Notes: generated by a model not told the origin, from the letters alone. Positions 14,950 to 31,354 are shown, counted from the first letter of the stretch. The stretch: 64,000 bases of DNA from an uncultured Candidatus Saccharibacteria bacterium (GCA_964574655.1 CAZNOH010000001.1:9852-73851), one strand, 5' to 3'. Translations and numbers: made by a program.

Positions 14950-14978
14950 TTGACAATATTGTTTTTCTTAATTATAGT
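14950..14978 (+). promoter_or_regulatory. Putative promoter TTGACA-N17-TATAGT for the P-loop kinase-like gene
   Basis: Consensus -35, 17-nt spacer, then a leader containing GATTGTTCTTTGACAAAG and the SD. Confidence 0.5.
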
Positions 14979-15030
14979 AAAAAGAAATATTGATTGTTCT
15001 TTGACAAAGACAAAGAAAGGAGGGAAGGCA

Positions 15031-16080
15031 ATGGTAATGGAAAATCTGATGCCTGAACAAGAAAAAGTAAAATTGGAACCATTAACAGCTTGGATGATGC
15101 GGGAACGGCGAGATTTTATAGCCAAATCTTCTTTGGCAGTGAGAGCTTTAGTTGTAGAGTTTTTGGGAATGGGCGGTTGTTGGAAAAGCACTTTGATCAA
15201 TGAATTGGTAACAAAATATTTCTATCCATTTGGCATTGAATTAGTGACTTATGAAGAGCCTGATAAAAAGATTCCGGAAGTTTCTCGAGAAAGGGAGCCA
15301 AAGAAGTTTCGCATCGCTACATATAGAAGAACTTTGGCTAATCTTGATGAAGCTTTGGGTTCAGTAAAAGATTTGGCTTTGTTTGATCGCGGACTTTTTG
15401 ATTTTATTGTTTGGTTTAATTTGGATTTTACCGGAGGGCTGTTGAGCGAAGAAGAATGCAGAAGAGGCATTGCTGATATCATGTTGCGTGGTTACGGAAA
15501 GGTTGACTTGATGTTTGTACATACAGATCAGGTTGCTTCTTGCTTGAAAAGCACTCCATCAATGGGTTCAACATCTTTAATGGATTCTTTTTATCTGTCT
15601 CGGCGGAATGCAGGAGAAAGGCAAATTCGTTTCCAGCTTTATCAAAGAATGTACCAAGAAATGTTTTTGGGCGATGAAAAAAAGTTAGTCAAAAAGGCTG
15701 TCAAATTTATGTTTGACATGAATTTGGGAAAGTTTAATCGTAATTTTGCTGAAGTTTTTTGGCAGGCAGTAGTGCTGATTGATCTGTATCTGGTCTTTCA
15801 GACTTGGGAAAGCCTTTTCTTGGATCGTTTTGGAGATGAATTGAAGCAAAATGAGCGCACATCTGATTTGGAAAAAAGGATTATGAAGTTAGGCGAGGCC
15901 TTGTTTTCGTCGCTAGAGCATTTGCGGAGGATTAAAGTTTATGAATTGCATGCAGATATAGTAAAGATCTTGGATTCATACGCGCAGACAGAATTTGTTA
16001 TTGCTCGGTGCGATGGATGGCGGGTGGTGGTTTCGGATATTTTCGGGTCTCCGCCAAAGTTTCGTATCTTGGAAGGTTAA
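15031..16080 (+). CDS. P-loop NTPase, deoxynucleoside/nucleotide-kinase-like
   Basis: Walker A-like VVEFLGMGGCWKSTLINEL followed by a DRGLFD motif. The start is set at the ATG 8 nt after AAAGGAGGG; the in-frame upstream Met at 14950 lies inside the promoter/leader. Confidence 0.45.
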   Translation: MVMENLMPEQEKVKLEPLTAWMMRERRDFIAKSSLAVRALVVEFLGMGGCWKSTLINELVTKYFYPFGIELVTYEEPDKKIPEVSREREPKKFRIATYRRTLANLDEALGSVKDLALFDRGLFDFIVWFNLDFTGGLLSEEECRRGIADIMLRGYGKVDLMFVHTDQVASCLKSTPSMGSTSLMDSFYLSRRNAGERQIRFQLYQRMYQEMFLGDEKKLVKKAVKFMFDMNLGKFNRNFAEVFWQAVVLIDLYLVFQTWESLFLDRFGDELKQNERTSDLEKRIMKLGEALFSSLEHLRRIKVYELHADIVKILDSYAQTEFVIARCDGWRVVVSDIFGSPPKFRILEG

Positions 16081-16105
16081 CTCCTCTTTTTGGGGAGTTT
16101 TTTAT
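16079..16105 (+). terminator. Terminator after the kinase-like gene
   Basis: AACTCCTCTTTTTGGGGAGTT followed by a T-run. It is near-identical to the terminator at 18470. Confidence 0.65.
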
Positions 16106-16185
16106 TGACAAAAAGTAATTATTTTATTATTATTGAGTAAGTTCTTTTATTGAGCGAGTTCTTTCAAAACTAGGAGGAGGAAGAA

Positions 16186-16986
16186 ATGGATGAAAAAAAG
16201 ACATTTAAGGTTGTATTGCCTTCGGGTGATGTGAAGGTTTGGGAATTTGATATTAAAACAAAGCCAAGTGAAGGATTGAATCAAAAAGCAGGAATTGGGA
16301 ATTTATTTTTTAAGTTTGGGAAGATAGCAGGAAAGATAATAGGATTATTTTTCTATTGGTTGGGACATGGATTTGTGTTGATGTTTAAGAAAATTCTAAA
16401 GGCGATTTCTGTCTTTGCAATATTGATTAAAAAAGTAGTGAAAAGAATTTATAGAAAAATGGAATTTCATGGTTTTTTGAGAGTCTTTTTGAATTTCTTT
16501 GTTTTGTTTATTTTAGGATTGGTCAGTTTTTGTTATTGGAAATGGCTAGTTCCTTGGATTCTGTCTGTTGAAGAGATAGCTTATCGTCATTCTGCAACTG
16601 TGTATTTTATTTATTTAGGGGTGTGTTTGTTAGTGACACTTGTATGGCTTTTTAGAAATCTGAATTCAAAAAAACGTAGTGAAATTACAGTTTTATATCT
16701 TGCTTTGATCTTGATTGTAATAGCAATAGCAATGTCAGGTTTTTTTGCTTTTCTAGCAATATCATTTTCTATTTATATCTTTGAAAATGTTGTTTTATCA
16801 GCGATTGTTCATGGGATTTTGCTCCTTTTAGCGATGATATTTGGTATTAGAGAAGCTGAATGGTTAAAACCGGATAAAAAAGAACAACTTGTAATGATTG
16901 ATAGAAACTTAATTGGATTGAAGCGTTTTGCCTCAGATAGCTTAAGAAAATTGGAAAGAATTGAGAAAGAACGTTCAAAAAAATAA
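16186..16986 (+). CDS. Paralog-family protein P1 (conserved N-terminal module MDEKKTFKVVLPSGDVKVWEF, polytopic membrane protein)
   Basis: N-terminal module shared with six downstream paralogs, at least five hydrophobic helices, strong SD AGGAGGAGG, leader motif GTTCTTTCAAAA. Confidence 0.6.
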   Translation: MDEKKTFKVVLPSGDVKVWEFDIKTKPSEGLNQKAGIGNLFFKFGKIAGKIIGLFFYWLGHGFVLMFKKILKAISVFAILIKKVVKRIYRKMEFHGFLRVFLNFFVLFILGLVSFCYWKWLVPWILSVEEIAYRHSATVYFIYLGVCLLVTLVWLFRNLNSKKRSEITVLYLALILIVIAIAMSGFFAFLAISFSIYIFENVVLSAIVHGILLLLAMIFGIREAEWLKPDKKEQLVMIDRNLIGLKRFASDSLRKLERIEKERSKK

Positions 16987-16993
16987 ATTTTAG

Positions 16994-17021
16994 TCCCAAT
17001 AAACAAGATTGGGATTTTTTC
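16994..17021 (+). terminator. Terminator after P1
   Basis: TCCCAAT-AAACAAG-ATTGGGA followed by TTTTTT. Confidence 0.7.
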
Positions 17022-17093
17022 TTAATTTTTTCTCTAGTAAAAAGTTTTAATAGTTAGATAATGGAGTTGTTCTTTGACAAAAAGGAGGAGAAA

Positions 17094-18452
17094 ATGAGCA
17101 AGTCTGTAGTACCGATTATTTTGCAGTCCATGAGACATGAGCAGGATTTATTTAAATGGAATCCAGAATTTGATTTGAATGTAGTTAATTTTGATCAGTT
17201 TAACAGGCCTTACATTAGGCAAAGAGGCAATGATGATCATGAGACTAGTTTTGTTCAAGTTTTGGATGACAGTGGAAAATTGGTAAAGTATGGTTTTGTG
17301 AAGGCAATTAAGGAAAGTTTTTCTGATTTTACAAAGACACTTTTAGGAGCTGGATCGCAGATGGCAAGGATTGTGTTTGATAAAGATAACCATGCTTATA
17401 CTTTAGTACGAATTGCTTGTGGCTTGGGAACGAAAGAAGTCCAGATAGGTTTGTTGCTTTATTCAAGAGATCAATGCAGAACTTGGCAAGTTTATAAGTT
17501 GCCGATTAATGGTGTGGCAACGATGGAATATTTTACCGGACATAATCAGATTAATGGACCGCCAATGATTGCTGTTTTTGAGAAAACAAAGGTGAAGGTG
17601 GCAAAATGGGCGACAATTCATAAATTATATGTTGTGGTGGTTAAAAAAACTAAGACAGGTCTTGAGTTTGAGCAGATAATAAAAGTGACAGAGAAATCTT
17701 TTGGTCTTTCAGCGCATTCTGGTGGGGCATCAGTCTTGGCTAGTTTAGATAGTAAAACGTATGTTATTTGGACAGAAGTAACTAATAACCCTAGTCATTT
17801 GGGATCGCCGACATTTGTAGCGACTTTTGATCATAGTTCCAAGAGATTAATCAATAAATCATTTGTTGGTTGTACATCAAAGCCGAAAAATGATATGCAC
17901 AATACTCCAGGGATTTGTTTGGATAGCCGAGGATTTTTAAATGTAATGCTTGGAGCGCACGCTGGTAGTTTTTTTTATGGCAGGAGCCAGATTTCTAACT
18001 CAGTAGAAAGAGGATGGACTTTGTTGCATGAAACATATTCGTCTGTCGGTCAAACTTATATTGCTTTGGTTTGTGATCAGGTAGATAATTTACATCTTGT
18101 TTTTCGGGATCATAGATATGGCAAAAGAGATTTTCACGCTAGCCATTTTCATTATTGCGCGCTTTGTTATCAAAGAATGTTAAAAGACGGATATTGGGAA
18201 GTTTCAAGACTATTGGTTGTGCCGCCATTGCCAGATTACAGCATCTATTATCATCAGTTGTCGATTGATCGATTAGGAAGATTGTTTTTATCTTACAATT
18301 ACTATAGCGAAAGTGAACCATACAAGAGTTGGATTGAGAAAAATGGCAGATATAATAAGAAATTTCGCGCTATGCTTTTTAGTGGAGATGGCGGTATGAC
18401 TTGGCAAATGGCGACAACGAGAATTTTTTTGGATGGATTTGTGAAGACTTGA
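17094..18452 (+). CDS. Hypothetical protein with two BNR/Asp-box-like motifs (possible beta-propeller)
   Basis: SRDQCRTW and SGDGGMTW match SxDxGxTW. SD AAAGGAGGAG and leader motif TTGTTCTTTGACAAA. The upstream in-frame Met at 17061 is in the leader. Confidence 0.4.
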   Translation: MSKSVVPIILQSMRHEQDLFKWNPEFDLNVVNFDQFNRPYIRQRGNDDHETSFVQVLDDSGKLVKYGFVKAIKESFSDFTKTLLGAGSQMARIVFDKDNHAYTLVRIACGLGTKEVQIGLLLYSRDQCRTWQVYKLPINGVATMEYFTGHNQINGPPMIAVFEKTKVKVAKWATIHKLYVVVVKKTKTGLEFEQIIKVTEKSFGLSAHSGGASVLASLDSKTYVIWTEVTNNPSHLGSPTFVATFDHSSKRLINKSFVGCTSKPKNDMHNTPGICLDSRGFLNVMLGAHAGSFFYGRSQISNSVERGWTLLHETYSSVGQTYIALVCDQVDNLHLVFRDHRYGKRDFHASHFHYCALCYQRMLKDGYWEVSRLLVVPPLPDYSIYYHQLSIDRLGRLFLSYNYYSESEPYKSWIEKNGRYNKKFRAMLFSGDGGMTWQMATTRIFLDGFVKT

Positions 18453-18469
18453 ACTTTGTTAGCTAGGTT

Positions 18470-18497
18470 AACTCTTCTTTTGGGGAGTTTTTTTATT
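18470..18497 (+). terminator. Terminator after the 17094 gene
   Basis: AACTCTTCTTTTGGGGAGTT followed by a T-run; a duplicate of the 16079 terminator. Confidence 0.65.
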
Positions 18498-18627
18498 TTT
18501 CCTAGTTTTTTCAATTTTTTTCTTTTTGATAAGAGATAATAATGAAAGTGGAAAGTAAAAGATAGGACTTTACAACTAGGACATGATCCGCTTTCGCTAA
18601 AGCTACGGCGGACAAAGGAGAACAGCC

Positions 18628-19653
18628 ATGAAGAATATCGGATCAAAATTGTTTGTGCTACTGGGGATGCTTTTGATCGTTATTGGAGCAATTTCGCTTT
18701 TGGTAGCAATTCTTTACGGCAAGTATTTTGCTTTTTTGGCCTTGTATCCTGATTTGGTAGATATGGTGGCGGATTTTGGAGTTAATATTTATCTGTCAAG
18801 AATTGTAGCAGTCTTTGTAACGATTGGATTGTGGGTAGCGATTTTCAAATTCTTGTTGAGCTTCAGCCAGAAAAAGAGAGAAATTGGTTTTTTCATTTTG
18901 TTAGGATTGTTTGTTCTGCATACCTTTTGTTTGTATATTATTAATTTGAATCGGTCTGTTTCTGTTGATGGGCAGGTGGGATTTTGCACGCGAGACCAAA
19001 TTACTGGACGAGTGGAATATTTCGATCGGTCTTTGTATGATGCTTCTGGCCAGAAAGCGGAAAAATGCACAAAAGATGAAATTCGGCAGCTCCGTGTTCA
19101 GGATAAATATCCCAATAATGAGATTCCTTTGATAGCGATTGGCAACTGGTTTGATGAGAATGGTAGTTCGTTGGTTTATTACTATAAAGATAGTCAAGGC
19201 GTACTTCATTTTCGTTATATGGGAGGTTTTGCTCAAACAGGAGAGATGTGGCAACAGGTAACAAAGGAAGTGCTTGGAAAAATCAGTCCAAATTTGCAGT
19301 CGCAGTTTCAGCAAACGAAAGGTGATGTTGTATTGAGGCATAATTTTGATGATCGACCGAATTTAAAGACTCTGTATAGAAATTCTTTGGCGGGATATCT
19401 GATTTTCTTTGTCTTTCTGAATATTGTTTTTTGGGTGGTGTTTTTGAAGATAGCAAGTCTTTCTTTTGGTACGAGGGCTAGTTTAATAGGTTTGGCTGGT
19501 TTGGTTAATCTGGTTGGTTTTTGCGGTATTGATTATGCATCAAGTTGGTCAGGATTGGCAGTTGCGGTTTTAATGATCAGCTTGGCATCGCCGTTTGTAA
19601 TTTCTTTCGTCAAAGGTTTCTGGACAGGAATGAGAGAGAGCAGGCCCGTCTAA
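18628..19653 (+). CDS. Membrane protein, unknown function
   Basis: N- and C-terminal TM clusters flank a ~170 aa hydrophilic domain. SD AAAGGAGAACAGCC precedes the ATG. Confidence 0.55.
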   Translation: MKNIGSKLFVLLGMLLIVIGAISLLVAILYGKYFAFLALYPDLVDMVADFGVNIYLSRIVAVFVTIGLWVAIFKFLLSFSQKKREIGFFILLGLFVLHTFCLYIINLNRSVSVDGQVGFCTRDQITGRVEYFDRSLYDASGQKAEKCTKDEIRQLRVQDKYPNNEIPLIAIGNWFDENGSSLVYYYKDSQGVLHFRYMGGFAQTGEMWQQVTKEVLGKISPNLQSQFQQTKGDVVLRHNFDDRPNLKTLYRNSLAGYLIFFVFLNIVFWVVFLKIASLSFGTRASLIGLAGLVNLVGFCGIDYASSWSGLAVAVLMISLASPFVISFVKGFWTGMRESRPV

Positions 19654-19696
19654 TTAAGGGCGGGAGGTCAACCAACTGGAAGAGGAGGAGACGGTC

Positions 19697-19927
19697 ATGA
19701 CAGGATACACAATCGCAATGTTGATTACTGGCGGGATTTTGCTGATTGTCGGTGTTTTGATTGTAACAGGCGTTTGGAATCCATTTTCTAAGAAGGATGC
19801 AGATGGCAAGAAGGAGCCGTTGTCCCGAAAGGAAAAAGGGATGGTGGCAGGCTTCTTTGCAATGCTGATTCTGGCAATCGTGAATTTCTTCTACGCCATT
19901 TTTCCGATGCAGAAGCGAAAGTCCTAA
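19697..19927 (+). CDS. Small 2-TM protein (paralog of 28448..28696)
   Basis: 76 aa with two hydrophobic helices, shares the W-x-PF...K-x-PL-x-KEK pattern with the 28448 ORF, SD GAGGAGGAG, followed by terminator hairpin CCCGA/TCGGG. Confidence 0.55.
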   Translation: MTGYTIAMLITGGILLIVGVLIVTGVWNPFSKKDADGKKEPLSRKEKGMVAGFFAMLILAIVNFFYAIFPMQKRKS

Positions 19928-19945
19928 AATATCATTCGTTCATTC

Positions 19946-19969
19946 ATCCCGATTTATTCGGGATTTTTA
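19946..19969 (+). terminator. Terminator after the small 2-TM gene
   Basis: CCCGA-TTTAT-TCGGG followed by ATTTTTAT. Confidence 0.55.
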
Positions 19970-20047
19970 TTTAATTGACAATAAGATTCTTTTATACTAT
20001 GTTGGAGAGAATGTTCTTTTCAAAATAGAAGAAAGGAGGAAAAAAGG

Positions 20048-20794
20048 ATGTCTAAGGGAGAGAAATTTAAAGTAATTGATCCATCGGGGGAATTGAAGGA
20101 ATGGTCATTTAAAGAAAAGCCAAAAAGTGCTGAACCAATGGTTTGTGAGGAAAAGAGAATAGAAACAAAGCCAAGTGTATTTTTCGAACTTGGAAAAATG
20201 TTTGGAAAAAAAATGAAGTTCTTGAAGTTATACGGAGTATGGATTATTTTTTGCATTTTGGGTATTCTCGCTGTTTTTTTTATTTGGGTATTGGCAATTT
20301 TTGTGCATGGAAGCGATTTTCTTTCTCAGACCATTCCAATACAGTCTAGGTCGCAACAGAAGCAAAGTATTGTCACACAAAATACCAAAGTGGTACAAAG
20401 ATCATGGCCACTGGGAAGCAAAGCAGAAGTATTGGTAGAAGATGTGGAGTGGAATTATTCAAGAAATGAGTTTTACTGTAATTTACATGAGATTAAGGGA
20501 TGGAGTGTTGTTTTTGATCGGGTAGAGACGCGGATCTGGAAATTACAGAAAAGTGATGAATCACCACAAGTTTTTAAACAAAGAGAGCCTCATTATTGGA
20601 CCCGAAACGTGCATCTTAATATTAGGCCTTTTCAACGTTATTGTGGAAAAGATAGACGGTCAGATCGTTGCGTGATAACTTTGGAAAACTATCGAGCATG
20701 GCTACAAGAAATAGAATGGATTGAGGTGAAACTTTTAGGTAAAGATGCACGAGGAAATGAAGTGAGTGTGGTTTTAGAGACTTATGATCATTGA
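20048..20794 (+). CDS. Paralog-family protein P2 (N-module + 1 TM + C-terminal domain shared with P6)
   Basis: MSKGEKFKVIDPSGELKEWSF, one TM. The C-terminal ~115 aa are alignable with the C-terminus of P6 (RIWKLQ..ESPQ.FKQR.P..WTR.VH...LENYRAWLQ..EWIE.KL.GKD.RGNE). Confidence 0.6.
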   Translation: MSKGEKFKVIDPSGELKEWSFKEKPKSAEPMVCEEKRIETKPSVFFELGKMFGKKMKFLKLYGVWIIFCILGILAVFFIWVLAIFVHGSDFLSQTIPIQSRSQQKQSIVTQNTKVVQRSWPLGSKAEVLVEDVEWNYSRNEFYCNLHEIKGWSVVFDRVETRIWKLQKSDESPQVFKQREPHYWTRNVHLNIRPFQRYCGKDRRSDRCVITLENYRAWLQEIEWIEVKLLGKDARGNEVSVVLETYDH

Positions 20795-20952
20795 TATTTA
20801 TACAGTTTTTTGAAGCTGTATTTTTTTTCTTAACTTTTTCAATTTTCTTTTTAAAGATTTGTTCTAATATTAGGTTAGATGATAGTTGACTAATTTTATT
20901 GTTCATGCTATCCTACAGTGATTGTTCTTTGACAAATCAAGGAGGAAGGAAA
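20795..20952 (+). repeat. Array cassette copy A (terminator + CTTAACTTTTTCAATTTTC box + promoter + GTTCTTTGACAAA leader + SD)
   Basis: About 85-95% identical to cassettes B-E over ~130 nt, by direct reading. Confidence 0.8.
20886..20914 (+). promoter_or_regulatory. Cassette promoter (TTGACT-N17-TATCCT) of P3
   Basis: Part of the duplicated cassette; same geometry in all five array copies. Confidence 0.45.
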
Positions 20953-21558
20953 ATGCCAGAAGAAAAGAAAACTTTTCAAGTGATTGCGCCGGATGGAGAG
21001 CTGAAAGAATGGGAAATTGAGAATTCAAAAGAAATAGGATTGGTGGAAAACAAGTTTAAAGAGAGACGAGCGATTTCAGTGAATGTTTTTTTTAGATGTG
21101 GAAGATGGGCAGGAAAAATAATATTGGGTTGGTTTTCTTTTTTCGTTTCAAAATTAGAACTTTTATTAAAACAAAAAGCCGAAAAGAAATTATTGAAAGT
21201 AAAAGAGAAAGTTGAAAGGGAAGAGAGTAAACGGTTAAAAATAAAGAGAATACATGAAGAAAGAATGCATGAAGAAGCAAAGAGAAAAGAATTAATTTTG
21301 CAGAGTATTGATGTTTTGGACAATGCGGGATATCACGAAAAAGCTGCAAGGATTGCTAAGGAGACAGGAAGTTATGAGAGAGCTATTGATATTTTAGATC
21401 GTACTGGACACCATGAAAAAGCTGCAGAGATTGCTGAGGAGGTAGGAAATTATGGGAAAGCTATTGATATTTTGGTACGATCGGGACATCACGGAAAAGC
21501 AGGGAGAATTGGTGAAAGACTTGCTAGAAGATCTAATAATTCTGTAAAAAAAGTTTAA
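20953..21558 (+). CDS. Paralog-family protein P3 (N-module + tandem 19-aa helical repeats)
   Basis: MPEEKKTFQVIAPDGELKEWEI, then three tandem repeats of G[YH]HEKAA.IA.E.G.Y..AIDIL.R.GHH. The start is at the ATG after AAGGAGGAAGGAAA. Confidence 0.6.
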   Translation: MPEEKKTFQVIAPDGELKEWEIENSKEIGLVENKFKERRAISVNVFFRCGRWAGKIILGWFSFFVSKLELLLKQKAEKKLLKVKEKVEREESKRLKIKRIHEERMHEEAKRKELILQSIDVLDNAGYHEKAARIAKETGSYERAIDILDRTGHHEKAAEIAEEVGNYGKAIDILVRSGHHGKAGRIGERLARRSNNSVKKV

Positions 21559-23002: not shown

Positions 23003-23959
23003 ATGGCAGAAGAAAAGAAAACTTTTCAAGTGATTACGCCGGATGGGGAATTGAAAGATTGGGAATTAGATGCGCCTAAACTAAAAAAGGCGGATGATAA
23101 GCTTAATAAAAAAAATCAGAGTTTGAGATTGGCTTTTGAATGGATGAAGAAAGCAGGAATGGCAACAGGAAAACATTATAGATTAATCCTGATTGTTGCG
23201 AGCTGTGTTTATTTGGCGGTATGGATTTGGCAAGAAAGATCTTTTCGTCTTGAAGAACTTCATCGTCAGCAGGTAGTAGCTAAGCAGTTACTGCAGGTGG
23301 AAGAAGGAAAAAGAGAGAGAATAAGAATACGAACAGATGAAGAAAGAAAACGTCGTGATGAAGTAGAGAGACAACAGTTGGAACGGCAAAGGTTGGAAGA
23401 ACAGCTGTGGGTAGAAGAGGAGCATAGCAGGCAGGCAAAATTACGTCAGACGAAAGATGATAGGAGACGTCGTGATGAAGAGGAAAGACGGCTGATAATG
23501 TTGCGTCGACAAGAGGAAATCAGATTGGCACGAGAGGCAAAGCAAAGAGAGAGGGAAGAACGTGAACCGCATACATATAAAACGAGTCAGCCAATGGTAT
23601 TAAAAGCAGGCGCATCACAAGAAGCTTATTTTAAATTTGCAGAGAGTGTAATTGATGTTCCAGATGATTTTTATATTAGAGGGATTAGGATTTGGTTAAA
23701 GTTGGATGTTAAGAGCTTTTATAGAGATGAATTTTTAAAACCTCGTTATGACGGTTTAGAATGTAATCTCGTGAGATCTGGCAAGGTAACTTTTTTAAGA
23801 GATTGTTGTCTTGATGGATGTCTTTTTGATGAATTTAATAGTGAATCGTCAAAAGGAGAATGGAAGATAAAGGTAAGAGCAGTAGAAGGATGGATTAATT
23901 CGTGGCAGATAACAATTACGCCAGCAGTTGCAGAAGATGGGACAGTATTAAAACCATAG
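23003..23959 (+). CDS. Paralog-family protein P5 (mosaic paralog of P4)
   Basis: Identical to P4 over the promoter, leader and first ~90 codons, diverges into an R/E-rich coiled-coil, then rejoins P4 in the C-terminal beta-domain. Confidence 0.6.
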   Translation: MAEEKKTFQVITPDGELKDWELDAPKLKKADDKLNKKNQSLRLAFEWMKKAGMATGKHYRLILIVASCVYLAVWIWQERSFRLEELHRQQVVAKQLLQVEEGKRERIRIRTDEERKRRDEVERQQLERQRLEEQLWVEEEHSRQAKLRQTKDDRRRRDEEERRLIMLRRQEEIRLAREAKQREREEREPHTYKTSQPMVLKAGASQEAYFKFAESVIDVPDDFYIRGIRIWLKLDVKSFYRDEFLKPRYDGLECNLVRSGKVTFLRDCCLDGCLFDEFNSESSKGEWKIKVRAVEGWINSWQITITPAVAEDGTVLKP

Positions 23960-24125
23960 ATTGTTTTTTGTTAAAACGCGCATGTGTCGCGTTTTTTTTT
24001 TAACTTTTTCAGTTTTCTTTTTAATAATTTGCATTAAAATCAGATTAGACGGATAGTTGACCAATTTTATTGTTCATGCTATCCTGTAGTGATTGTTCTT
24101 TAAACAAAGAAAAGAGGAGGGAAGT
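23960..24125 (+). repeat. Array cassette copy D
   Basis: Same terminator type as copy C, box TTAACTTTTTCAGTTTTC. The leader variant ends GTTCTTTAAACAAAGAAAAGAGGAGGG. Confidence 0.75.
24057..24085 (+). promoter_or_regulatory. Cassette promoter (TTGACC-N17-TATCCT) of P6
   Basis: Duplicated cassette copy. Confidence 0.45.
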
Positions 24126-25271
24126 ATGCCTACAGAAAAGATATTTAGGGTGATTACGCCGGCAGGAGAGAGAAAAGAGTGGGTGATAAAAAATGAAGCT
24201 TGCGAAGTTCAACCTAAATGTTTAGTGCAAGAACAAAAGAAAGATAGATTTGATGGATTTTTAGATGGAGTGAGCAAGAAATTGGGTGAAGCGGGAAAGG
24301 AATTAGCTAAAATAACAGTTTCTTTTATTTCATGGTTGAGAACGAATATTAGAGTGATCTTGCTTGCTATGTTAGTCTTAGCGGCTTGTATAGCGCTATG
24401 GCGCTTAGTAGTTTTTGTAGGCATTCTATACGAGGCATTTGTTGATTGGTTGACGAAAAATAAATCTTCAGATGGAGCATGGTGGATGACTTATTTTCTT
24501 GGCATTGGCATATGGTTGATGATTGCTGTTGTTTATTTTCTGTTGATCTATGTCAAAAGAGAACACAGAATTTGGGGAGTTCGTTATTATGATTTTGCTG
24601 ACTTTTTTTGGTTCTTGGCATTAGGAGTATTTTTAGCATTTGTTGGCGGGTTAATTTCAGCGCAGGTCGCTTCTTGGCTTGCTTCGATTGTACCTTGGTA
24701 CTTGTCAATAATTATTCCATTAGCGGTTTCTTTGTTAGGAATTGGATTGATTAAAAACGGAATTTATCAATGCAATTTTGATGAAAAAGTTTGGTGGATA
24801 GTTATTCTAGCTGTGATATTGTTAGTCTCTGGAGTTAAAGCAGGCTGTGAATTAAGAAAAAAATGGCAGACTGAAAGAGAAGAATCTTTACGACAGCAAG
24901 CAGTTGAGCGTTTGAAATGCAAGGCAAGAATTTTGGTAGAACATTCAAGTTGGGGTTGGTCAAATAATGAATTTCATTTTAGTTTACAGGACATGGGAAA
25001 TTGTGGAGTTGTTTTGAATAAAGCGGAAGTCAGGATTTGGAAATTGCAAGAAGATAATGAATCTCCGCAATCTTTTAAGCAACGCCAGCCGTTTTTTTGG
25101 ACAAGAGATGTTCATTTTGAGGCTGACTCATTTCAATGCATGGAGGGTAGTATAAAATTGGAAAATTATCGGGCTTGGTTGCAAGATAAAGAATGGATTG
25201 AAATTAAACTATTTGGTAAAGATGAGCGTGGAAATGAGTTAATTGTACTTTTGGAAGCATATGATGAATAA
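24126..25271 (+). CDS. Paralog-family protein P6 (N-module + polytopic membrane region + C-terminal domain shared with P2)
   Basis: MPTEKIFRVITPAGERKEWVI, about six hydrophobic helices, C-terminal domain homologous to the P2 C-terminus. Confidence 0.6.
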   Translation: MPTEKIFRVITPAGERKEWVIKNEACEVQPKCLVQEQKKDRFDGFLDGVSKKLGEAGKELAKITVSFISWLRTNIRVILLAMLVLAACIALWRLVVFVGILYEAFVDWLTKNKSSDGAWWMTYFLGIGIWLMIAVVYFLLIYVKREHRIWGVRYYDFADFFWFLALGVFLAFVGGLISAQVASWLASIVPWYLSIIIPLAVSLLGIGLIKNGIYQCNFDEKVWWIVILAVILLVSGVKAGCELRKKWQTEREESLRQQAVERLKCKARILVEHSSWGWSNNEFHFSLQDMGNCGVVLNKAEVRIWKLQEDNESPQSFKQRQPFFWTRDVHFEADSFQCMEGSIKLENYRAWLQDKEWIEIKLFGKDERGNELIVLLEAYDE

Positions 25272-25465
25272 TATTATTACAGCTCTTTAAAGCTGTATTT
25301 TTTTCTTAACTTTTTCAATTTTCTTTTTTATAATTCGTATTAAAATCAGATTAGATGAATAGTTGATCAATTTTATTGTTCATGCTATTCTATAGTGATT
25401 GTTCTTTGACAAATCAATCCGCCTTCATCTCTGCGGAGACTACGGTGGACAGGGGAGGAAGGAAA
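25272..25465 (+). repeat. Array cassette copy E (with a ~40-nt GC-rich leader insertion)
   Basis: Hairpin ACAGCT/AGCTGT, box, promoter TTGATC-N17-TATTCT. The leader GTTCTTTGACAAATCAA is interrupted by TCCGCCTTCATCTCTGCGGAGACTACGGTGGACAGG before GGGAGGAAGGAAA. Confidence 0.75.
25363..25391 (+). promoter_or_regulatory. Cassette promoter (TTGATC-N17-TATTCT) of P7
   Basis: Duplicated cassette copy. Confidence 0.4.
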
Positions 25466-26269
25466 ATGGCAGAAGAAAAGAGGACTTTCAAGGTTGTTGC
25501 GCCGGATGGAGAGTTGAAGGAATGGGAGTTTGGAGCTTCGGAGGCAAAGAAAAGTATCTCTTTAGAATCATGTCAGTCAACTAAAACAGATGAGATTATC
25601 AAACATTCTTCAAATCAGATTCGAGCAGAAGCGTATATAGTTGTTTTTAAGATCGGTAAATGGTTGGGAAATGTGATTAAACATTTTGTTTTGCAACTTA
25701 GGATATTTTGGCAAAAAATGACAGCTAAGAAATATTCTACTTATGATGATTTTCAGAAAGGCAAGTGTCTTATGGTAGTAGAGGAAGACTTGATTATTAG
25801 TGAAAAGGAACTTAGATATGAACAATCATATGGAAGATCGTATTTGAAATTAATTATGGTAATTTCATGTCTAAGGGAAATAAATGTTGTTTTCACAAAA
25901 GGCAAAGTTGTAGGCGAGAGTGAATATGGTCTTGCAGAATTTGATATTACTGGTTGTATTAGGAATTTGGAAATTTTTGTTTTTGTAGACAGAAAAGAAA
26001 TAGTTATCGATTTGAGTTGTTTAATCAGTCTGATTGAAAAATGTGAAGTGTTAAATATAGAACTTTTGGGGAGCGAAACAGATTTGTTTTCAGGGCAAAA
26101 AAGATTGAGAAAAATTCGTTTTGAATTTGCTAAATTAGGAGGTAAATTAGTTAAATATCATTGTACTTTTTGTGATTCTAGTGCTTTCTCTTCTGATTTG
26201 CTTTTTTATTCCCAATTTATTTGGGATTTTTTATTTTTCTTAATTTTTTCAGTATTTTTCTTATTATAA
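25466..26269 (+). CDS. Paralog-family protein P7 (N-module + distinct body + C-terminal hydrophobic tail)
   Basis: MAEEKRTFKVVAPDGELKEWEF. Its leader carries a ~40-nt GC-rich insertion relative to the other cassettes. The C-terminus FLFFLIFSVFFLL is hydrophobic. Confidence 0.55.
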   Translation: MAEEKRTFKVVAPDGELKEWEFGASEAKKSISLESCQSTKTDEIIKHSSNQIRAEAYIVVFKIGKWLGNVIKHFVLQLRIFWQKMTAKKYSTYDDFQKGKCLMVVEEDLIISEKELRYEQSYGRSYLKLIMVISCLREINVVFTKGKVVGESEYGLAEFDITGCIRNLEIFVFVDRKEIVIDLSCLISLIEKCEVLNIELLGSETDLFSGQKRLRKIRFEFAKLGGKLVKYHCTFCDSSAFSSDLLFYSQFIWDFLFFLIFSVFFLL

Positions 26270-26325
26270 AAAAGCAAAAATGAAGCTAGCAGATAGTTCT
26301 TTCACAACAGGCAAAGGAGGACAAA

Positions 26326-27285
26326 ATGTGGGCGAAAATCGGGTTTTTTTTGCTGGCAGTCTTGGCAATTTATATCGGCATTGCGCTTTTAGTAAAGTTT
26401 TTTCCGCAGATTTTTCGGCAAAAAAATCTTGATACTCTGCGGAGGGCAAGCGGAAATATGTTTGTTCCTCAAGGCGCTTTTGGAAGAACTCTTGGATTAA
26501 CATTGGGAATTCCGGTGGCGATAATGGGAGTAACAGCAGTAGTAGAATTTGAACAAAAAAGATTGCTAGGTTTGAAAATTAGAGAACTGGAAAATAAGAT
26601 AGTTGCTAAATTAAGCAAAGGAATTATTTATTTTATTTCGCTTAGAGTTTTTTTGGATGAGAAGTTGAGTTTGTGGAAAAGACAGATTGCAATTGGTGAA
26701 TTTGAGCATCTTAGTTTGTTGGGCGAGGTTGATGATTTGGCGAGAAAATTAAAAGATTTTTGGCCAGTGATTTCAGAAATCGAAGTTTTGCTGGCAGATA
26801 ATTTTCAATTGTTAGAAAAAGTGAAGCAAATGCAGTTGCCTTCGGAAATTAATGGCGAGGTTGGGAAATTGGAGCAGGCTTTGAGGGAATACCAGAAAAT
26901 AACGATAGATTTTGACAGTTTGGCGCCTTTTGTTTCTTTGGGCGATGATTTGAAACAGATCAATACTTTATTAAAGCAAATTATGATGATGGATTCTGAA
27001 TTGCAGAATAAGATTGAGCCTAAAAAAGATTATTATATCATTTTAGGACTTAAAAAAAATGCTTCACAAGAAGAGATAAAGAAAGCTTATCGAGCTTTGG
27101 CGATAAAATTTCATCCTGATAAAAAAAGATCCCAATTGGAAAAAATTGACGATGAGGATATGAAAGCCAGAATTGAAGAAGAATATAATCGGATGCTGGC
27201 GGATATTAATGAAGCTTATGGAATTTTATTAGATGTCCAAAAGAGAGAAGAATATGACCGAACTTTTTCGTCAAGTACTTTTTAG
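26326..27285 (+). CDS. DjlA-like membrane-anchored J-domain co-chaperone
   Basis: Two N-terminal TM helices, a coiled-coil middle, and a C-terminal J domain with HPD (DYYIILGLKKNASQEEIKKAYRALAIKFHPDKK). Confidence 0.7.
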   Translation: MWAKIGFFLLAVLAIYIGIALLVKFFPQIFRQKNLDTLRRASGNMFVPQGAFGRTLGLTLGIPVAIMGVTAVVEFEQKRLLGLKIRELENKIVAKLSKGIIYFISLRVFLDEKLSLWKRQIAIGEFEHLSLLGEVDDLARKLKDFWPVISEIEVLLADNFQLLEKVKQMQLPSEINGEVGKLEQALREYQKITIDFDSLAPFVSLGDDLKQINTLLKQIMMMDSELQNKIEPKKDYYIILGLKKNASQEEIKKAYRALAIKFHPDKKRSQLEKIDDEDMKARIEEEYNRMLADINEAYGILLDVQKREEYDRTFSSSTF

Positions 27286-27364
27286 TATTTGACATTTTTC
27301 TTTTGTTTTGTTTGAACAAGATAAAAGAAAGATAGTTAGCTCTTTAAAAAAAGGAGGGAGAGAC

Positions 27365-28192
27365 ATGGCAAACATAGTCAAGAGGCCAGAATCAGTAACA
27401 GCGCTTTTGACTGATATTCGGAAATTTACAGGCGGTCAATTTTCATCAGTTAGAAAAGAAGATCAGCAGGCAAGTTTTGGCAAAAAACTGCAAGTTGTTT
27501 TTCTGTTTGATACAACTGGAAGCATGTATCCGTATTATGAGCTTGGCAAGAAGCAAATTAGCCAGATAGTTTCGAAGGTCGTAGAAAAACATCGGCAGGC
27601 GCAGTTTTGCTATTTGGCTTATAAGAATCATGGCGATGAAACAGAATTTTTTGACGGCGAGAATCCTTTCTTTGCCTCTTCTTTTACCAGTGATCCAGAA
27701 CAAATCAAGTTGGAATTAGAGAAGGTGAAGAATGGAGGCGGAGGCGATGGTTTGACAGCTTTGGAATGCGTTTTTCATTATCTTAATGTAAATGTCAAAT
27801 GGCAAGATTCGGCAACAAAAATTGTGGTTTTAATTGGCGATATGCCGCCTCATGGAGTGATTGATTCGGTAGCAAAATGTCCAAAAAAGCATAATTATCA
27901 AGATGAGATTGCGCAAATGAAGGCGAAAGGGATAAAGGTTTATTCAGTATTCTGTTTTGAAGAGGGTAATTTGGTTTCATCTCGGATAAAGCAGGTTAAA
28001 ATGTTTTTTAGGGAAACAGCTTCAAGAACTAATGGGCGCTATCTGGAATTGGCAGAGATTGGAGAAATTGTTGATTTGTTGACAGGAATTTGCATGAAGG
28101 AAATTGGTCATTTGGATGAATTTGTCAAGGATTTGGAAAGATTGCAGCAGCTTTCCGATGGGAAGAGAAGACTGTTGCTGGCACTGAAGTAA
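27365..28192 (+). CDS. von Willebrand factor type A (vWA) domain protein
   Basis: MIDAS-like VVFLFDTTGSM with an alpha/beta alternation typical of vWA. Start is the ATG after AAAAAGGAGGGAGAGAC. Confidence 0.6.
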   Translation: MANIVKRPESVTALLTDIRKFTGGQFSSVRKEDQQASFGKKLQVVFLFDTTGSMYPYYELGKKQISQIVSKVVEKHRQAQFCYLAYKNHGDETEFFDGENPFFASSFTSDPEQIKLELEKVKNGGGGDGLTALECVFHYLNVNVKWQDSATKIVVLIGDMPPHGVIDSVAKCPKKHNYQDEIAQMKAKGIKVYSVFCFEEGNLVSSRIKQVKMFFRETASRTNGRYLELAEIGEIVDLLTGICMKEIGHLDEFVKDLERLQQLSDGKRRLLLALK

Positions 28193-28202
28193 GGAGGAAG
28201 CC

Positions 28203-28457
28203 ATGGTAGAAGAACGGAATGAAACAGTTGCAAAAGGAATTAATTTTTTGTTGGATATGGCTGCAAATATGGGCAAGATGGCAGTGAACAATGTTTTTGA
28301 AGTGGAGACAGCGGATGATAGGACAAAAGAAGTGAGCAAAGCGGAGATCAAGAAAAGTTTCAGAAAGCAATTGATAAAAATGGTCTTGGATTTTTTCGGT
28401 GACGAGGAGGATGAGCAGAAACCCGAAGACAAACAAGGAGGCGAGCCATGTGGTTGA
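28203..28457 (+). CDS. Small acidic hypothetical protein
   Basis: 84 aa, SD TAAGGAGGAAGCC, overlaps the next ORF by 10 nt (coupling). Confidence 0.45.
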   Translation: MVEERNETVAKGINFLLDMAANMGKMAVNNVFEVETADDRTKEVSKAEIKKSFRKQLIKMVLDFFGDEEDEQKPEDKQGGEPCG

Positions 28458-28696
28458 CAATTCTTTTGATTGTTTTGTCGGCAATTGCGATGTTGGTTGG
28501 TTCGGCTTTGATTTTGGATTTTTGGACGCCTTTCAAAAATGAACATGGCGAAAAAACGCCGCTGTTGCCAAAAGAAAAAAGTGCAGTCGGAGTGATTGTG
28601 CTAGGAATAGTTGTTTCATTGTTATCATTGATCTTTGTTGCTAATCCGCCTTGGCTTAGTCAGCTTCGCGAGAAGATGAAGTCTAACAAGGCGTGA
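28448..28696 (+). CDS. Small 2-TM protein (paralog of 19697..19927)
   Basis: 82 aa, two hydrophobic helices, shared W.PF...K.PL..KEK pattern, SD AGGAGGCGAGCC, followed by terminator CCCGAA/TTCGGG. Confidence 0.55.
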   Translation: MWLTILLIVLSAIAMLVGSALILDFWTPFKNEHGEKTPLLPKEKSAVGVIVLGIVVSLLSLIFVANPPWLSQLREKMKSNKA

Positions 28697-28710
28697 ACTT
28701 TTGTACTTTA

Positions 28711-28735
28711 CCCGAAAATAACTTCGGGTTTTTTA
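28711..28735 (+). terminator. Terminator after the second small 2-TM gene
   Basis: CCCGAA-AATAAC-TTCGGG followed by TTTTTTA. Confidence 0.65.
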
Positions 28736-28865
28736 TTTAATCGACAAGTTGTTATTAAAAACGTATAATTTAGATAATAAAAATATAAAATTTATATTAA
28801 ATTAAAATAAAAATATTTGTTCTTTGAAAAAAAGGAGGGCGTAAAAATGGCGTGGTTGAAGAAAA

Positions 28866-29618
28866 ATGATTGAATGGATAAAAGTTGTGATTAATAATTT
28901 TATTCCTATTGTAAAAGAATTGCTAAGTGCAAGAATTTCAAAAATGAGGCAAGTGATTGTTAATTTTCGATATTGGAGATTGATGTCATTTGTTTTTGTA
29001 TCTGTTTGTTTGTTGGTAGTCTTTTTGTTTAATGCTAATTTGAGTTATGAAAATTTAGATTCAGACTTTGATGTTAAATCTAATATTGTTGATTTGAATA
29101 AGCGAGATGTTGGAATCTTGAATTATCAAGATGTGATTTTGTCTTCAGGGCCATTTTTGGATTCTGGCAATGTTGTTTTTGATAGGCCACAAAAACAGAT
29201 TGTTGTCGTAGAAAAAAGATTTGAGAAAATAAAAGTGAAGGAAAAATTGAAGAGAGATTTTTGGAGGGTGTTTTTTGTTGTAGATGATAAATCATTGGAT
29301 GCAAAAGCTACGAGATGGAAGGCTGATCTTTCGCAGATGAGATACATATGTAATTCAAATTGGAATAGACGAGCTGATGTTGTTTGCAAGAGACATGATT
29401 ATTTTTGTACTGTTGCATTTGAGATTGTTTTGGACGGACAGAAATATAAAGTTGTTTTTAGATCAGATGTTGCTATGAATGGCTTTGACAGGGTAAGTAA
29501 GATGAAAGTGTATGTTTGGGGACAAGAAAATATGAAAATTGATATAGAAAACAGTAAGGATTTGGTTGGCAAAATAATTGCATTAAGACCAAAGTGTTCG
29601 CCTTTTTCAAGTGATTAG
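28866..29618 (+). CDS. Hypothetical N-terminally anchored protein; start overlaps a 8-codon uORF
   Basis: SD AGGAGGG serves ATG 28847 (MAWLKKND, stop 28871-73). The main ATG at 28866 lies in another frame inside the uORF, so its true start is uncertain. Confidence 0.45.
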   Translation: MIEWIKVVINNFIPIVKELLSARISKMRQVIVNFRYWRLMSFVFVSVCLLVVFLFNANLSYENLDSDFDVKSNIVDLNKRDVGILNYQDVILSSGPFLDSGNVVFDRPQKQIVVVEKRFEKIKVKEKLKRDFWRVFFVVDDKSLDAKATRWKADLSQMRYICNSNWNRRADVVCKRHDYFCTVAFEIVLDGQKYKVVFRSDVAMNGFDRVSKMKVYVWGQENMKIDIENSKDLVGKIIALRPKCSPFSSD

Positions 29619-31350: not shown

Positions 31351-31354
31351 CAAG

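Follow-up and report, generated by a model that had tools for sequence, protein, structure and literature searches.

The locus studied here raises the question of why some genes of a bacterium with a tiny genome, a member of the Patescibacteria (CPR), are preceded by strong Shine-Dalgarno (SD) sequences while others carry none. An earlier note on this DNA had put the split down to either horizontal transfer from an SD-using lineage or a dedicated high-efficiency translation class. We analysed a 64-kb window, which makes up about 10% of its 654-kb contig and contains 58 genes (24 SD and 34 non-SD), and compared it with loci from the relatives L213 and L215-L220 (71-93% identity).

Two classes of translation start sites

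The motif GGAGG occurs 59 times in the window, counting both strands, and on 24 occasions it precedes the ATG of a long open reading frame (ORF) at SD distance. The 24 genes so defined have AAGGAGG-type tracts of 6-10 nt (mostly 8-10) that are complementary to an assumed 16S rRNA tail, ACCUCCUUU, and the 3' end of GGAGG is mostly 5-8 nt away from the ATG, with extremes of 3 and 11 nt. We calculated duplex energies as the best value between positions -20 and -3 against this assumed canonical tail. The SD genes yielded values of -8.9 to -13.6 kcal/mol (n = 24), whereas the non-SD genes yielded +2.9 to -3.6 kcal/mol with a single outlier, g34895, at -6.5 kcal/mol. The energies are bimodal (24 versus 34 genes), and intermediate values are nearly absent.

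The non-SD genes are located mostly in three blocks:

1831..12033: conserved block with rpoC, ftsK, rodZ, recA, efp and ychF; A/T-rich leaders without G
29762..40644: conserved block with rpsF, ssb, rpsR, PGM, trpS, rnj, SBP, secG and the G5 protein; rpsR (31135-31350) and secG (39118-39333, minus strand) are SD-less
51014..62607: polX, GNAT, groES, groEL, NUDIX, SLT, glycerate kinase and others

Their leaders are A/T-rich, with a frequency of G of at most 0.15 at each position from -20 to -1 and of A of about 0.5, and the orthologues in the relatives likewise lack an SD and are A-rich and G-poor upstream. The absence of an SD that had been reported for rpoC, ftsK, recA, efp, ychF, rpsF, ssb, rpsR, trpS, rnj, secG, uvrA, uvrC, polX, groES and groEL was confirmed for every gene. 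Misannotated starts, named earlier as a possible cause, can be ruled out: no in-frame alternative start near the 5' ends of the non-SD genes has an SD, and the N-termini of these genes are conserved among the relatives. The proposal of a near-leaderless uvrC transcript is correct as to the TATAAT, which is located 10 nt from the ATG, but the short leader is not established because 31 nt upstream there is another TATAAT whose -35 box is better. A TATAAT-like box ends 9-10 nt before the ATG of uvrC, ychF and polX, as compared to about 6-8 nt in leaderless mRNAs, with better-scoring promoters further upstream, and the predicted leaders of most non-SD genes are 20-90 nt long.

SD genes are accessory and keep their class in relatives

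Homologues at syntenic loci of close relatives were found for 4 of the 24 SD genes versus 28 of the 34 non-SD genes (p = 7e-7). Pfam matches above the curated cutoff showed the same division, with about 5/24 versus 30/34 (p = 3e-7), where 13 of the 30 are core genes whose assignment came from their sequence and from the precomputed Pfam annotation of the relatives. The SD genes are orphan or accessory, and the non-SD genes are conserved and Pfam-annotated. The former evolve fast, and many encode membrane or Cys-rich proteins; they comprise a 17-kb segment between ychF and rpsF and single-gene insertions, missing in relatives at about 90% protein identity. The strong SDs listed earlier are real, but two genes on the minus strand had been missed (12155-12931 and 52891-53181). 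The SD genes outside the island are:

12155..12931, minus: DA1-like Cys-rich gene (258 aa); SD AAAAAAAGGAGGAAG at 12948-12934 and BoxA-like GCTCTTTAAAAAA at 12955-12943, an exact GYTCTTTAANA match
40797..41319, plus: gene 40813, 168 aa, orphan-like; SD GGAAGGAGGG, no box
43481-44152, plus: gene with BoxA-like GTTCTTTTGATAA at 43437-43449 and SD at 43457-43473
45115..46646, plus: MFS transporter gene (45147-46646) with BoxA-like GTTCCTTACAATC and SD AGGGGAGGAGGAGGA; absent from relatives
49781..50187, plus: gene 49816-50187 with BoxA-like GTTCTTTTGACAA and SD at 49796-49815; absent from relatives
50266..50846, minus: CDP-alcohol phosphatidyltransferase (pgsA-like); SD GGGAGG, no box
52891..53198, minus: gene for a 96-aa membrane protein; SD AAGAGGAAAGGAGGA; absent from relatives
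62729..63146, plus: gene 62751, SD-led, 131 aa, Cys-rich; degenerate box-like GTTTGGCTTTGGCAGAG in the leader

Orthologues in L213 and L215-L220 retain their SD or non-SD class at 71-93% identity, and the division is therefore a stable lineage trait. Among L216-L219, the SD is retained in orthologues of pgsA (a conserved gene), of 43481 (the L217 copy has GTTCTTTGAACAA plus AAAGGAGG) and of 40813 (in L216/L217).

A strain-specific island

The segment between ychF and rpsF contains an island of 16 SD-led genes, mostly as monocistronic units of promoter, leader, ORF and terminator. The island is absent from L213, where ychF, DUF3175, rpsF and ssb are adjacent. Seven genes are paralogs that share the N-terminal motif MxEEKKTFxVIxPDGELKEWE, and they form an orphan family for which no homologues were found elsewhere among 5.8 billion or 1.8 billion representative proteins. 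The features of the island are:

15031..29618, plus: island, with starts at 15031, 16186, 17094, 18628, 19697, 20048, 20953, 21747, 23003, 24126, 25466, 26326, 27365, 28203, 28448 and 28847/28866
14950..14978, plus: promoter of gene 15031, sigma-70-like TTGACA-17-TATAGT (11/12 matches)
14996..15008, plus: BoxA-like GTTCTTTGACAAA of gene 15031; SD AAAGAAAGGAGGGAAGG at 15012-15028
16141..16170, plus: tandem BoxA-like pair GTTCTTTTATTGA and GTTCTTTCAAAAC ahead of the SD of gene 16186
17069..17081, plus: BoxA-like GTTCTTTGACAAA ahead of the SD of gene 17094
18590..18622, plus: UNCG-loop hairpin, then SD ACAAAGGAG, in the leader of gene 18628
20013..20025, plus: BoxA-like GTTCTTTTCAAAA ahead of the SD of gene 20048
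20924..20936, plus: BoxA-like GTTCTTTGACAAA, with paralogous copies at 21718, 22974 and 25401
24095, plus: BoxA-like variant GTTCTTTAAACAA, paralogous to the 20924 box
26296..26308, plus: BoxA-like GTTCTTTCACAAC ahead of the SD of gene 26326 (membrane protein with DnaJ domain)
27339..27351, plus: BoxA-like GCTCTTTAAAAAA ahead of the SD of gene 27365 (VWA-like)
28819..28873, plus: BoxA-like GTTCTTTGAAAAA, SD, then an 8-codon ORF, MAWLKKND* (28847-28873)

The GTTCTTTTCAAAA box is located 9 nt past the -10 box of a TTGACA-17-TATGTT promoter (19975-20003), and a TTGACY-17-TATYCT promoter precedes each of the boxes at 20924, 21718, 22974, 24095 and 25401 by 9 nt. Genes 28203 and 28448 are downstream of 27365 in the same operon and have an SD and no box. 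The hairpin ahead of gene 18628 has no Rfam match; a related element is found at 25421-25455. The SD previously assigned to gene 28866 is present but serves the 8-codon ORF, which overlaps the ATG of this 250-aa gene. A change of 1 nt in an A5 run would join the two reading frames.

Native composition of the SD genes

We also examined whether the SD genes are cassettes from an SD-using lineage, or a lineage-specific mobile element, that kept the expression signals of the donor. Their absence from relatives with highly similar core proteins (UvrA 90%, YchF 93%) and their arrangement, with single insertions between conserved genes and a cluster in the 17-kb segment, are in line with such an origin, as are the Bacillota-like signals (TTGACA/TATAAT, AAGGAGG and intrinsic terminators) and a GC3 value that is higher, if only by 0.09 (0.32 versus 0.23). 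Yet the relative synonymous codon usage (RSCU) of the SD genes correlates with that of native genes on the same strand at r = 0.96, and their third-position G/C skew tracks the replication strand on both strands, more strongly than for the core genes. No integrase, phage genes, tRNA or direct-repeat border, or donor homologues were found, the main family lacks homologues in either protein set, and the vertically inherited orthologues of pgsA, 43481 and 40813 have retained their SDs over a long divergence. In addition, the host ribosome would have to use the SD in any case. As regards recent transfer, the horizontal origin put forward in the earlier note is thus unsupported, and we consider the acquired-cassette explanation quite unlikely. 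Since the SD genes are accessory and absent from close relatives, ancient or intra-lineage mobility may nevertheless have occurred.

Of the earlier proposal, it is the dedicated class, as distinct from its high efficiency, that fits, given the shared leader architecture and the retention of class in orthologues. The expression of these genes may thus be under separate control.

A BoxA-like motif exclusive to SD leaders

The motif G[T/C]TC[T/C]TT(GACAAA) is located in the predicted transcribed leaders, at most 75 nt upstream, of 16 of the 24 SD genes versus none of 33 non-SD genes (p = 1.3e-8). The restriction of a BoxA-like box to SD-gene leaders is new here. With five paralogous copies among the 16, the number of independent instances is about 11-12. 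Every box is in sense orientation, 7-50 nt downstream of the best-scoring predicted -10 boxes and 7-25 nt from the SD. Of the 16 genes with a box, 15 have the core GYTCTTT, the exception being GTTCCTT at 45115. The eight SD genes without a box include three that are operon-internal (19697, 28203 and 28448) and five that are promoter-proximal (18628, 40813, 50266, 52891 and 62751).

BoxA is an rRNA antitermination signal, and its E. coli consensus is GYTCTTTAANA (PMC5725501). This full 11-mer is present in two leaders (12955 and 27339); position 8 of the window boxes is usually G, C or T, most often G as in the Bacillota rrn motif, as opposed to A in E. coli. The window motif nearly matches GATTGTTCTTTGAAAAC, which we take to be the Bacillota rrn BoxA. 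Matching sequences are found in the spacers or leaders of rrn operons from non-CPR bacteria, such as Priestia (GATTGTTCTTTGAAAACT) and Latilactobacillus (TTTGTTCTTTGAAAACT); from their position, we presume that the Bacillota spacer motifs are BoxA elements. The relatives have box and SD before other genes, including a rSAM gene in L213 (TGTTCTTTGAAAAC), a gene in L217 (GTTCTTTGAACAA) and a kinase gene in L220 (GTTCCTTCAAAAC). A metagenome scan for box, SD and ATG yielded single instances per contig only; it may be that the host lineage alone uses the box so densely. A NusB homologue is present in a related CPR locus, L014 (Falkowbacteria). The identification as BoxA is one of sequence resemblance, because the 16S 3' end, the rrn leader with its own BoxA, nusB, rho and rpsU are located outside the window; neither the 64-kb window nor the retrieved loci of the relatives contain rRNA.

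Possible functions of the box

The reading that we favour, and to which we give an even chance, is that the SD genes are a native class with promoter, BoxA-like leader, super-SD, ORF and terminator, in which BoxA-based control would set their translation apart from that of the core proteome. Ribosomes would initiate on core genes without SD pairing, on short, unstructured, A/U-rich and G-depleted leaders. Lineage-specific genes would depend on a modular cassette of sigma-70-type promoter, box leader, long SD, ORF and intrinsic terminator, with an rrn-BoxA-like box (G[T/C]TCTTT plus an A-rich tail) and an SD of 8-10 nt complementary to a 16S tail whose anti-SD would be present and usable. The box would act in RNA as a NusB/S10 (Nus factor) site, and a Nus-bound box could either make RNA polymerase termination-resistant or, like that of E. 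coli suhB, gate the access of ribosomes to the SD. If so, the BoxA in the organism's own rrn leader or spacer would be GTTCTTTGA. The box can pair weakly with the SD, and therefore box occupancy and SD exposure could be coupled. Control would be exerted by Nus factors or by a hairpin that sequesters the SD.

The pairing could also be the sole function, with the pyrimidine box serving as an anti-SD mimic in a weak, Nus-free hairpin of the fourU thermometer or simple attenuator type. In most leaders the minimum-energy fold, at -4 to -8 kcal/mol, pairs UUCUUU with AAGGAG or the neighbouring AAAGAA, and the predicted mean unpaired probability of the SD core increases from 0.43 to 0.76 when the box is exchanged for A7. 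A marginally stable hairpin between the U tract and the SD is predicted in about 9 of 14 leaders, where z-scores are modest and covariation is absent. However, the fold energies are only 1-2 standard deviations below those of shuffled sequences, and compensatory changes are not scorable because both arms are nearly invariant. Removal of the box barely alters the predicted SD accessibility at 24095, 43437, 25401 and 49781, and the hairpin would lose out to the SD-antiSD duplex (-11 to -13 kcal/mol). Nor does pairing account for the 5' G, which never varies, for the single fixed C or for the exact GYTCTTT register in about 12 independent leaders. We hold a purely hairpin-based function to be unlikely.

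A DNA operator or other promoter-proximal element, bound by a transcription factor or an alternative sigma factor and defining a transcriptional regulon with which the SD is merely correlated, seems to us very improbable. The boxes are located at about +1 to +50 of predicted promoters, as is typical of repressor sites, and the commonest form contains a weak dyad, TTGT-N6-ACAA. But the conserved part is the asymmetric half GYTCTTT only, the boxes are in sense orientation throughout, and their distance to the -10 box varies over 7-50 nt while that to the SD is short (7-25 nt). The match to the rrn BoxA would also have to be a coincidence.

A further elaboration of BoxA-based control, which we regard as rather unlikely, is a two-tier system in which the anti-SD is reserved for fast-evolving lineage-specific genes with BoxA leaders, sometimes with a boxB-like hairpin and possibly with roles at the cell surface or in host interaction, and in which free NusB/S10 or a ribosome sub-population sets the timing of translation. 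If true, the supply of ribosomes would govern expression of the accessory genes, separately from that of the SD-less core proteome.

Comparison with known systems

The anti-SD has been lost in part of the Parcubacteria (PMC9297842), which belong to the same superphylum, and SD use is likewise reduced in the core genes here. The difference is that ideally spaced SDs are conserved in orthologues, and the anti-SD is therefore most likely retained in the host lineage. In Bacteroidia-like initiation the anti-SD is sequestered by bS21, bS18 and bS6. Of these, bS21 is frequently absent from Parcubacteria (PMC9297842); bS6 and bS18 are encoded in the window, which is uninformative for anti-SD sequestration. 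Bacteroidia have SD-blind ribosomes and A-rich leaders, with an SD retained on rpsU (PMC7797042, PMC9976891, PMC13000453). As in the window, their core genes are SD-less with A-rich, G-poor leaders and a minority has an extended SD, implying a differently controlled subset in both cases, but the strong SD of F. johnsoniae is found on one gene (rpsU) as compared to about 40% of the window genes, which are accessory.

Like fourU/ROSE thermometers and SD-sequestering hairpins, the leaders contain a U-rich tract that, with G-U pairs, can mask AAGGAG in weak hairpins, but the box is conserved beyond the needs of pairing and its predicted stability is marginal. The Bacillota rrn element GATTGTTCTTTGAAAACT, a presumed BoxA, is near-identical to GATTGTTCTTTGACAAAT in the window; there it is part of pre-rRNA, here of an mRNA leader beside the SD.

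In the E. coli suhB mRNA, a BoxA located 6 nt from the SD mediates Nus-dependent translational repression (PMC5725501). The window leaders resemble those of suhB and the C. koseri parE-like gene (PMC5725501) in having a sense-strand GYTCTTT-type box in the 5' UTR a few nt upstream of the SD, and differ in the tail, GA(C/A)AA as opposed to AANA. Gamma-proteobacterial genomes contain 0-7 protein-coding genes led by BoxA, mostly linked to translation or Nus factors (PMC5725501), whereas in the 64-kb window a BoxA-like box precedes 16 genes, which are orphans.

Two classes of leaders

The motif GGAGG occurs 59 times on the two strands of the window, and 24 of these copies are located 3-8 nt upstream of the ATG of a long ORF. 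We calculated duplex energies for positions -20 to -3 of each candidate start against an assumed canonical 16S tail, ACCUCCUUU. With this assumed tail, the 24 genes with an AAGGAGG-type Shine-Dalgarno sequence (SD genes) yielded values of -8.9 to -13.6 kcal/mol, whereas the remaining genes ranged from +2.9 to -3.6 kcal/mol, with a single value of -6.5 kcal/mol. The gap between the two ranges indicates that the distribution of SD strength is bimodal rather than graded. In many SD genes the SD is 8-10 nt long, as in AGAAAGGAGG. Since complements of this length lie at ideal spacing and are conserved in orthologues, we infer that the lineage retains a usable anti-SD.

Features of the window
12155-12931, minus strand: SD gene
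15031-29618, plus strand: island of 16 SD-led genes
20821-25532, in the island: five tandem paralogues
28847-28873: SD-led 8-codon ORF overlapping the ATG of the 28866 gene
29762-30265: rpsF
31135-31350: rpsR, no SD
39118-39333, minus strand: secG, no SD
52891-53181, minus strand: SD gene

All 16 housekeeping genes to which the earlier note ascribed no SD, including rpsR and secG, indeed lack one; their leaders are 65-100% A+T, and the frequency of G is at most 0.15 at each position from -20 to -1 in SD-less leaders. Start misannotation does not account for the absence, since nearby in-frame starts also lack an SD and the N-termini are identical in relatives. The 24 SD genes scored here agree with the SD genes listed previously, except that the genes at 12155 and 52891 had been missed and that the SD assigned to gene 28866 exists but serves the 8-codon ORF. 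This ORF (MAWLKKND) stops 5 nt past the ATG of the 250-aa gene in a different frame, and the two frames would be joined by a 1-nt change in an A5 run. Possible explanations of the overlap are an assembly indel, slippage on the A5 run and coupling of termination to reinitiation.

The uvrC gene had been proposed to be nearly leaderless because of an adjacent TATAAT. This motif is real and located 10 nt from the ATG, but a second TATAAT with a better -35 box lies 31 nt upstream. Since the predicted promoters give leaders of 20-90 nt for most non-SD genes, systematic leaderless initiation of core genes is unsupported. Short tandem repeats, with units of 7-11 nt in 3-7 copies that differ from gene to gene, are present in the leaders or promoter regions of most SD-less core genes (for example 1689-1822, 9177-9216, 10919-10969, 31355-31396, 37139-37184, 39340-39375, 46712-46764, 57475-57526, 57818-57889, 61204-61245 and 62611-62639). 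One repeat, CGCTGATTT(T)A in 3.6 copies, is found at two loci, 31355 and 61204. Core leaders in relatives also bear repeats of other units, such as ATTCTAA before efp and ATCTGTG before trpS in L213, the syntenic locus of one relative. These repeats might act in SD-independent initiation, as landing pads, or be bound by regulators.

The split follows gene class and is conserved in relatives

Homologues of RecA, YchF and UvrA place the window in the Patescibacteria (CPR), with neighbours labeled Parcubacteria, Falkowbacteria, Uhrbacteria or "Patescibacteria group". Look-ups of exact window proteins gave only short Logan contigs of SRR13723393; one window protein is recorded for a 654,272-bp NCBI contig. 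The window has a G+C content of 34% and a single tRNA gene, and no Rfam family was detected in it at gathering thresholds. The G>C skew of the plus strand is very strong, about +0.3 regardless of gene direction (13,463 G versus 8,126 C), and is also present at third codon positions in genes of both strands. The G-rich, presumed leading, strand carries 21 of the 24 SD genes versus about half of the non-SD genes. The bS6 protein encoded by rpsF is 167 aa long with a long acidic and lysine-rich C-terminal extension, in agreement with the enlarged bS6 of CPR bacteria (PMC9297842).

Syntenic loci of relatives were retrieved via YchF and UvrA homologues, so that the analysis covered the 64 kb window and about 130 kb from relatives.

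Syntenic loci and their identity to the window
L213: 93% (YchF)
L216-L218: 90% (UvrA)
L219: 80%
L215: 75%
L220: 71%

Genes without an SD are conserved. A Pfam domain above the curated cutoff was assigned to about 30 of these 34 genes versus about 5 of the 24 SD genes (Fisher p = 3e-7); the 30 include 13 obvious core genes assigned by sequence and the precomputed Pfam annotation of relatives rather than scanned. Likewise, orthologues in the syntenic loci were identified for 28/34 non-SD genes versus 4/24 SD genes (p = 7e-7). In L213, ychF is followed directly by a DUF3175 gene, rpsF and ssb, indicating that the entire segment at 12.1-29.6 kb of the window is strain-specific, and the MFS gene 45147 as well as 49816 and 52891 are single-gene insertions absent from L216-L218. 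The SD rule is tied to gene class but not absolute: the accessory genes 13062, 33361 and 34895 lack an SD, while the conserved pgsA-like gene has one. Membrane proteins tended to be more frequent in the SD class (14/24 versus 11/34), a trend only (p = 0.06).

Housekeeping leaders were A/T-rich and SD-less in every relative examined, whereas the SD was kept in orthologues of the 43481 family (L216-L219), the 40813 family (L216-L218) and pgsA (L216-L219). In L220, the most distant locus, 18 genes were SD-less, AAGGAGG preceded a single orphan membrane protein gene and a kinase gene had a weaker SD. The identity to relatives was 37-84% for SD orthologues versus about 80-96% for their non-SD neighbours. 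The two leader architectures are thus maintained in evolution, and the split is a lineage trait that is stable over substantial divergence rather than an accident of one strain.

A BoxA-like element in the leaders of SD genes

Alignment of the regions upstream of the SD genes uncovered a box, G[T/C]TC[T/C]TT, most commonly (GAT)TGTTCTTTGACAAA, located 7-25 nt upstream of the SD. The core was present within 75 nt of the start in 16/24 SD genes versus 0/33 non-SD genes (p = 1.3e-8). With five of the 16 boxes being copies in paralogues, about 11-12 cases are independent, and of the eight SD genes without a box three (19697, 28203, 28448) are internal to operons. The region's best-scoring predicted sigma-70-like promoters (TTGACA-17-TATAGT and similar) lie directly upstream of the box, which is located 7-50 nt downstream of the predicted -10 box and is therefore inside the predicted transcript. 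Most island genes end with an intrinsic terminator, so that the units read promoter, box, SD, ORF and terminator.

In at least one island paralogue, the 21747 gene (P0002), the NCBI start is a leader ATG at 21699 that precedes the SD-led start by 48 nt; it yields MLFFSDCSLTNQGGRK..., in which box and SD are translated. An equivalent leader ATG is also open at 20905, 22955 and 25382. Start calls in CPR genomes would improve if both regimes were taken into account.

The combination of box and SD gave about 5 matches in 1.3 Mb of background versus 13 in the 64-kb window. A recA scan of GTDB representative genomes, in which the best match had 74% identity, revealed no comparable density of box plus SD in any of 80 loci. 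Viral contigs contained five isolated matches, with a single instance in the one inspected. A metagenome scan for TTGTTCTTTGA..AAGGAGG..ATG gave at least 120 loci, which represent background only: each of the matches listed was an isolated occurrence in an unrelated context, and none of them came from the source organism. Four of the metagenome loci (L177, L178, L187, L209) share a small gene whose product has an archaeal-type class III signal peptide (MFKEKKGQAAMEFLMTYGWAIL...), with TTGTTCTTTGATAATTGAATTATGGCAAGGAGG upstream, a conserved box-plus-SD leader in an unrelated lineage that is possibly DPANN or CPR.

The E. coli-derived BoxA consensus is GYTCTTTAANA (Baniulyte et al. 2017, PMC5725501). 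The box core corresponds to its positions 1-7, and two leaders (12955 and 27339) match all 11 positions. For comparison, motifs of other phyla were taken from plasmid-borne rrn operons. Judging by their position rather than by annotation, we take these conserved motifs to be probable rrn BoxA elements; GATTGTTCTTTGACAAAT and ATTTGTTCTTTGAAAAAA from the window are nearly identical to the Bacillota form. The box-plus-SD layout also recurs in relatives, where it precedes unrelated genes.

Presumed rrn BoxA elements, and boxes with SD in relatives
Priestia, rrn spacer: GATTGTTCTTTGAAAACT
Latilactobacillus, rrn spacer: TTTGTTCTTTGAAAACT
Arthrobacter, rrn leader and spacer: GTTGTTGTTTGAGAACT
C. difficile, rrn leader: ATTTTTCTTTGATAAAAC
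L213, before the radical-SAM gene: TGTTCTTTGAAAAC
Before the 43481 orthologue: GTTCTTTGAACAA
L220, before the kinase gene: GTTCCTTCAAAAC

A NusB homologue is encoded in a related Falkowbacteria locus. We have moderate confidence, based on sequence, that the box is a Nus-factor site acting in RNA, where it would confer either resistance to termination or control of ribosome access. A serious rival is a plain hairpin that masks the SD, since minimum-energy folds of -4 to -8 kcal/mol pair the box with the SD or the adjacent AAAGAA in most leaders, and the SD core is predicted to be unpaired with a mean probability of 0.43, which increases to 0.76 once A7 replaces the box. However, the invariant 5' G, the single fixed C and the exact register of the box are not explained by pairing alone, and both arms vary so little that no covariation can be scored. 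The two may also be combined, in that binding of NusB/S10 to the box would free the SD. As a third possibility the box could be a DNA operator, but its distance from the -10 box is variable and its conservation is one-sided. The BoxA-like leader element is a new, testable handle on the mechanism.

Another small leader hairpin, CCRCC...C(UNCG)G...GGYGG, has the SD, ACA(A/G)(A/G)GGAG, directly behind it and is shared by unrelated SD genes of two or three genomes: at 18590-18622 and 25421-25455 in the window, upstream of gene 16747-17787 (minus strand) in L213 and upstream of 234 in L219. One pair of the stem switches between G-C, A-U and G-U, and the leader hairpins matched no Rfam family at permissive E-values. 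In the leaders of 25466 and the L213 radical-SAM gene this hairpin follows the box, which is the boxA-then-boxB order of the lambda nut site. In L213 the leader of rpsF contains an additional hairpin with GAAGGAGGA, which at 19 nt from the ATG is too distant for an SD role.

Origin of the SD genes

The earlier note considered either horizontal origin of the SD genes from an SD-using lineage or a dedicated translation class. GC3 is 0.32 in the SD class versus 0.23, and the excess consists of G in plus strand genes and C in minus strand genes, indicating that it tracks the replication-strand skew, more strongly than in core genes. RSCU values of SD genes and native same-strand genes are highly correlated (r = 0.96). 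Seven island proteins form a family with a common promoter, leader and N-terminus (MxEEKKTFxVIxPDGELKEWE) and divergent bodies; no homologues were found among 5.8 billion proteins, and the N-terminal profile, run against 1.8 billion representatives, retrieved no proteins other than these seven. No integrase, phage genes or bordering tRNA were found in the window. A prophage was discarded, with no PHROG matches except a DnaJ domain.

Given the native composition and the lack of homologues, integrase, phage genes and a bordering tRNA, recent import from an SD-using lineage is unsupported, and horizontal origin is disfavoured. The dedicated class is favoured by the common leader architecture and its retention in orthologues, and the data agree better with genes that are native and evolve fast, or that move within the lineage.

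Over about 120-300 nt, covering promoter, leader and the first 25 codons, the five tandem paralogues have a common sequence, and 300-nt stretches of two of them (21675-21974 and 22931-23230) are 100% identical. The C-terminal parts are related only in part or not at all. The family, which occurs in this genome alone, is reminiscent of variable surface proteins undergoing continued gene conversion.

Comparison with known initiation systems

The use of SDs is generally regarded as a genome-wide trait that characterizes a lineage. In this one small genome, a near-binary split follows gene age and conservation, which makes it a natural system for studying how SD-independent and SD-dependent initiation coexist on one ribosome. 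In the literature on CPR bacteria we found no report of a core/accessory SD split within one genome, nor of BoxA-like leaders across many mRNAs.

In E. coli suhB, the Nus complex is recruited by a BoxA at a distance of 6 nt from the SD and represses translation, making Rho termination possible, and the effect survives insertion of up to 100 nt between BoxA and SD; genes of this kind number 0-7 per genome (PMC5725501). If the box is a true BoxA, the reach of Nus control would grow from a few housekeeping targets to a large regulon of accessory genes in an uncultivated phylum.

The core genes of the window resemble those of Bacteroidia, which have SD-blind ribosomes and A-rich leaders (PMC7797042, PMC9976891, PMC13000453), but a strong SD is found there on rpsU alone, whereas about 40% of the window's genes have one. 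About half of the Parcubacteria lack the anti-SD motif and often also bS21 (Tsurumaki et al., PMC9297842). The lineage of the window seems to retain the anti-SD for use by part of its genes.
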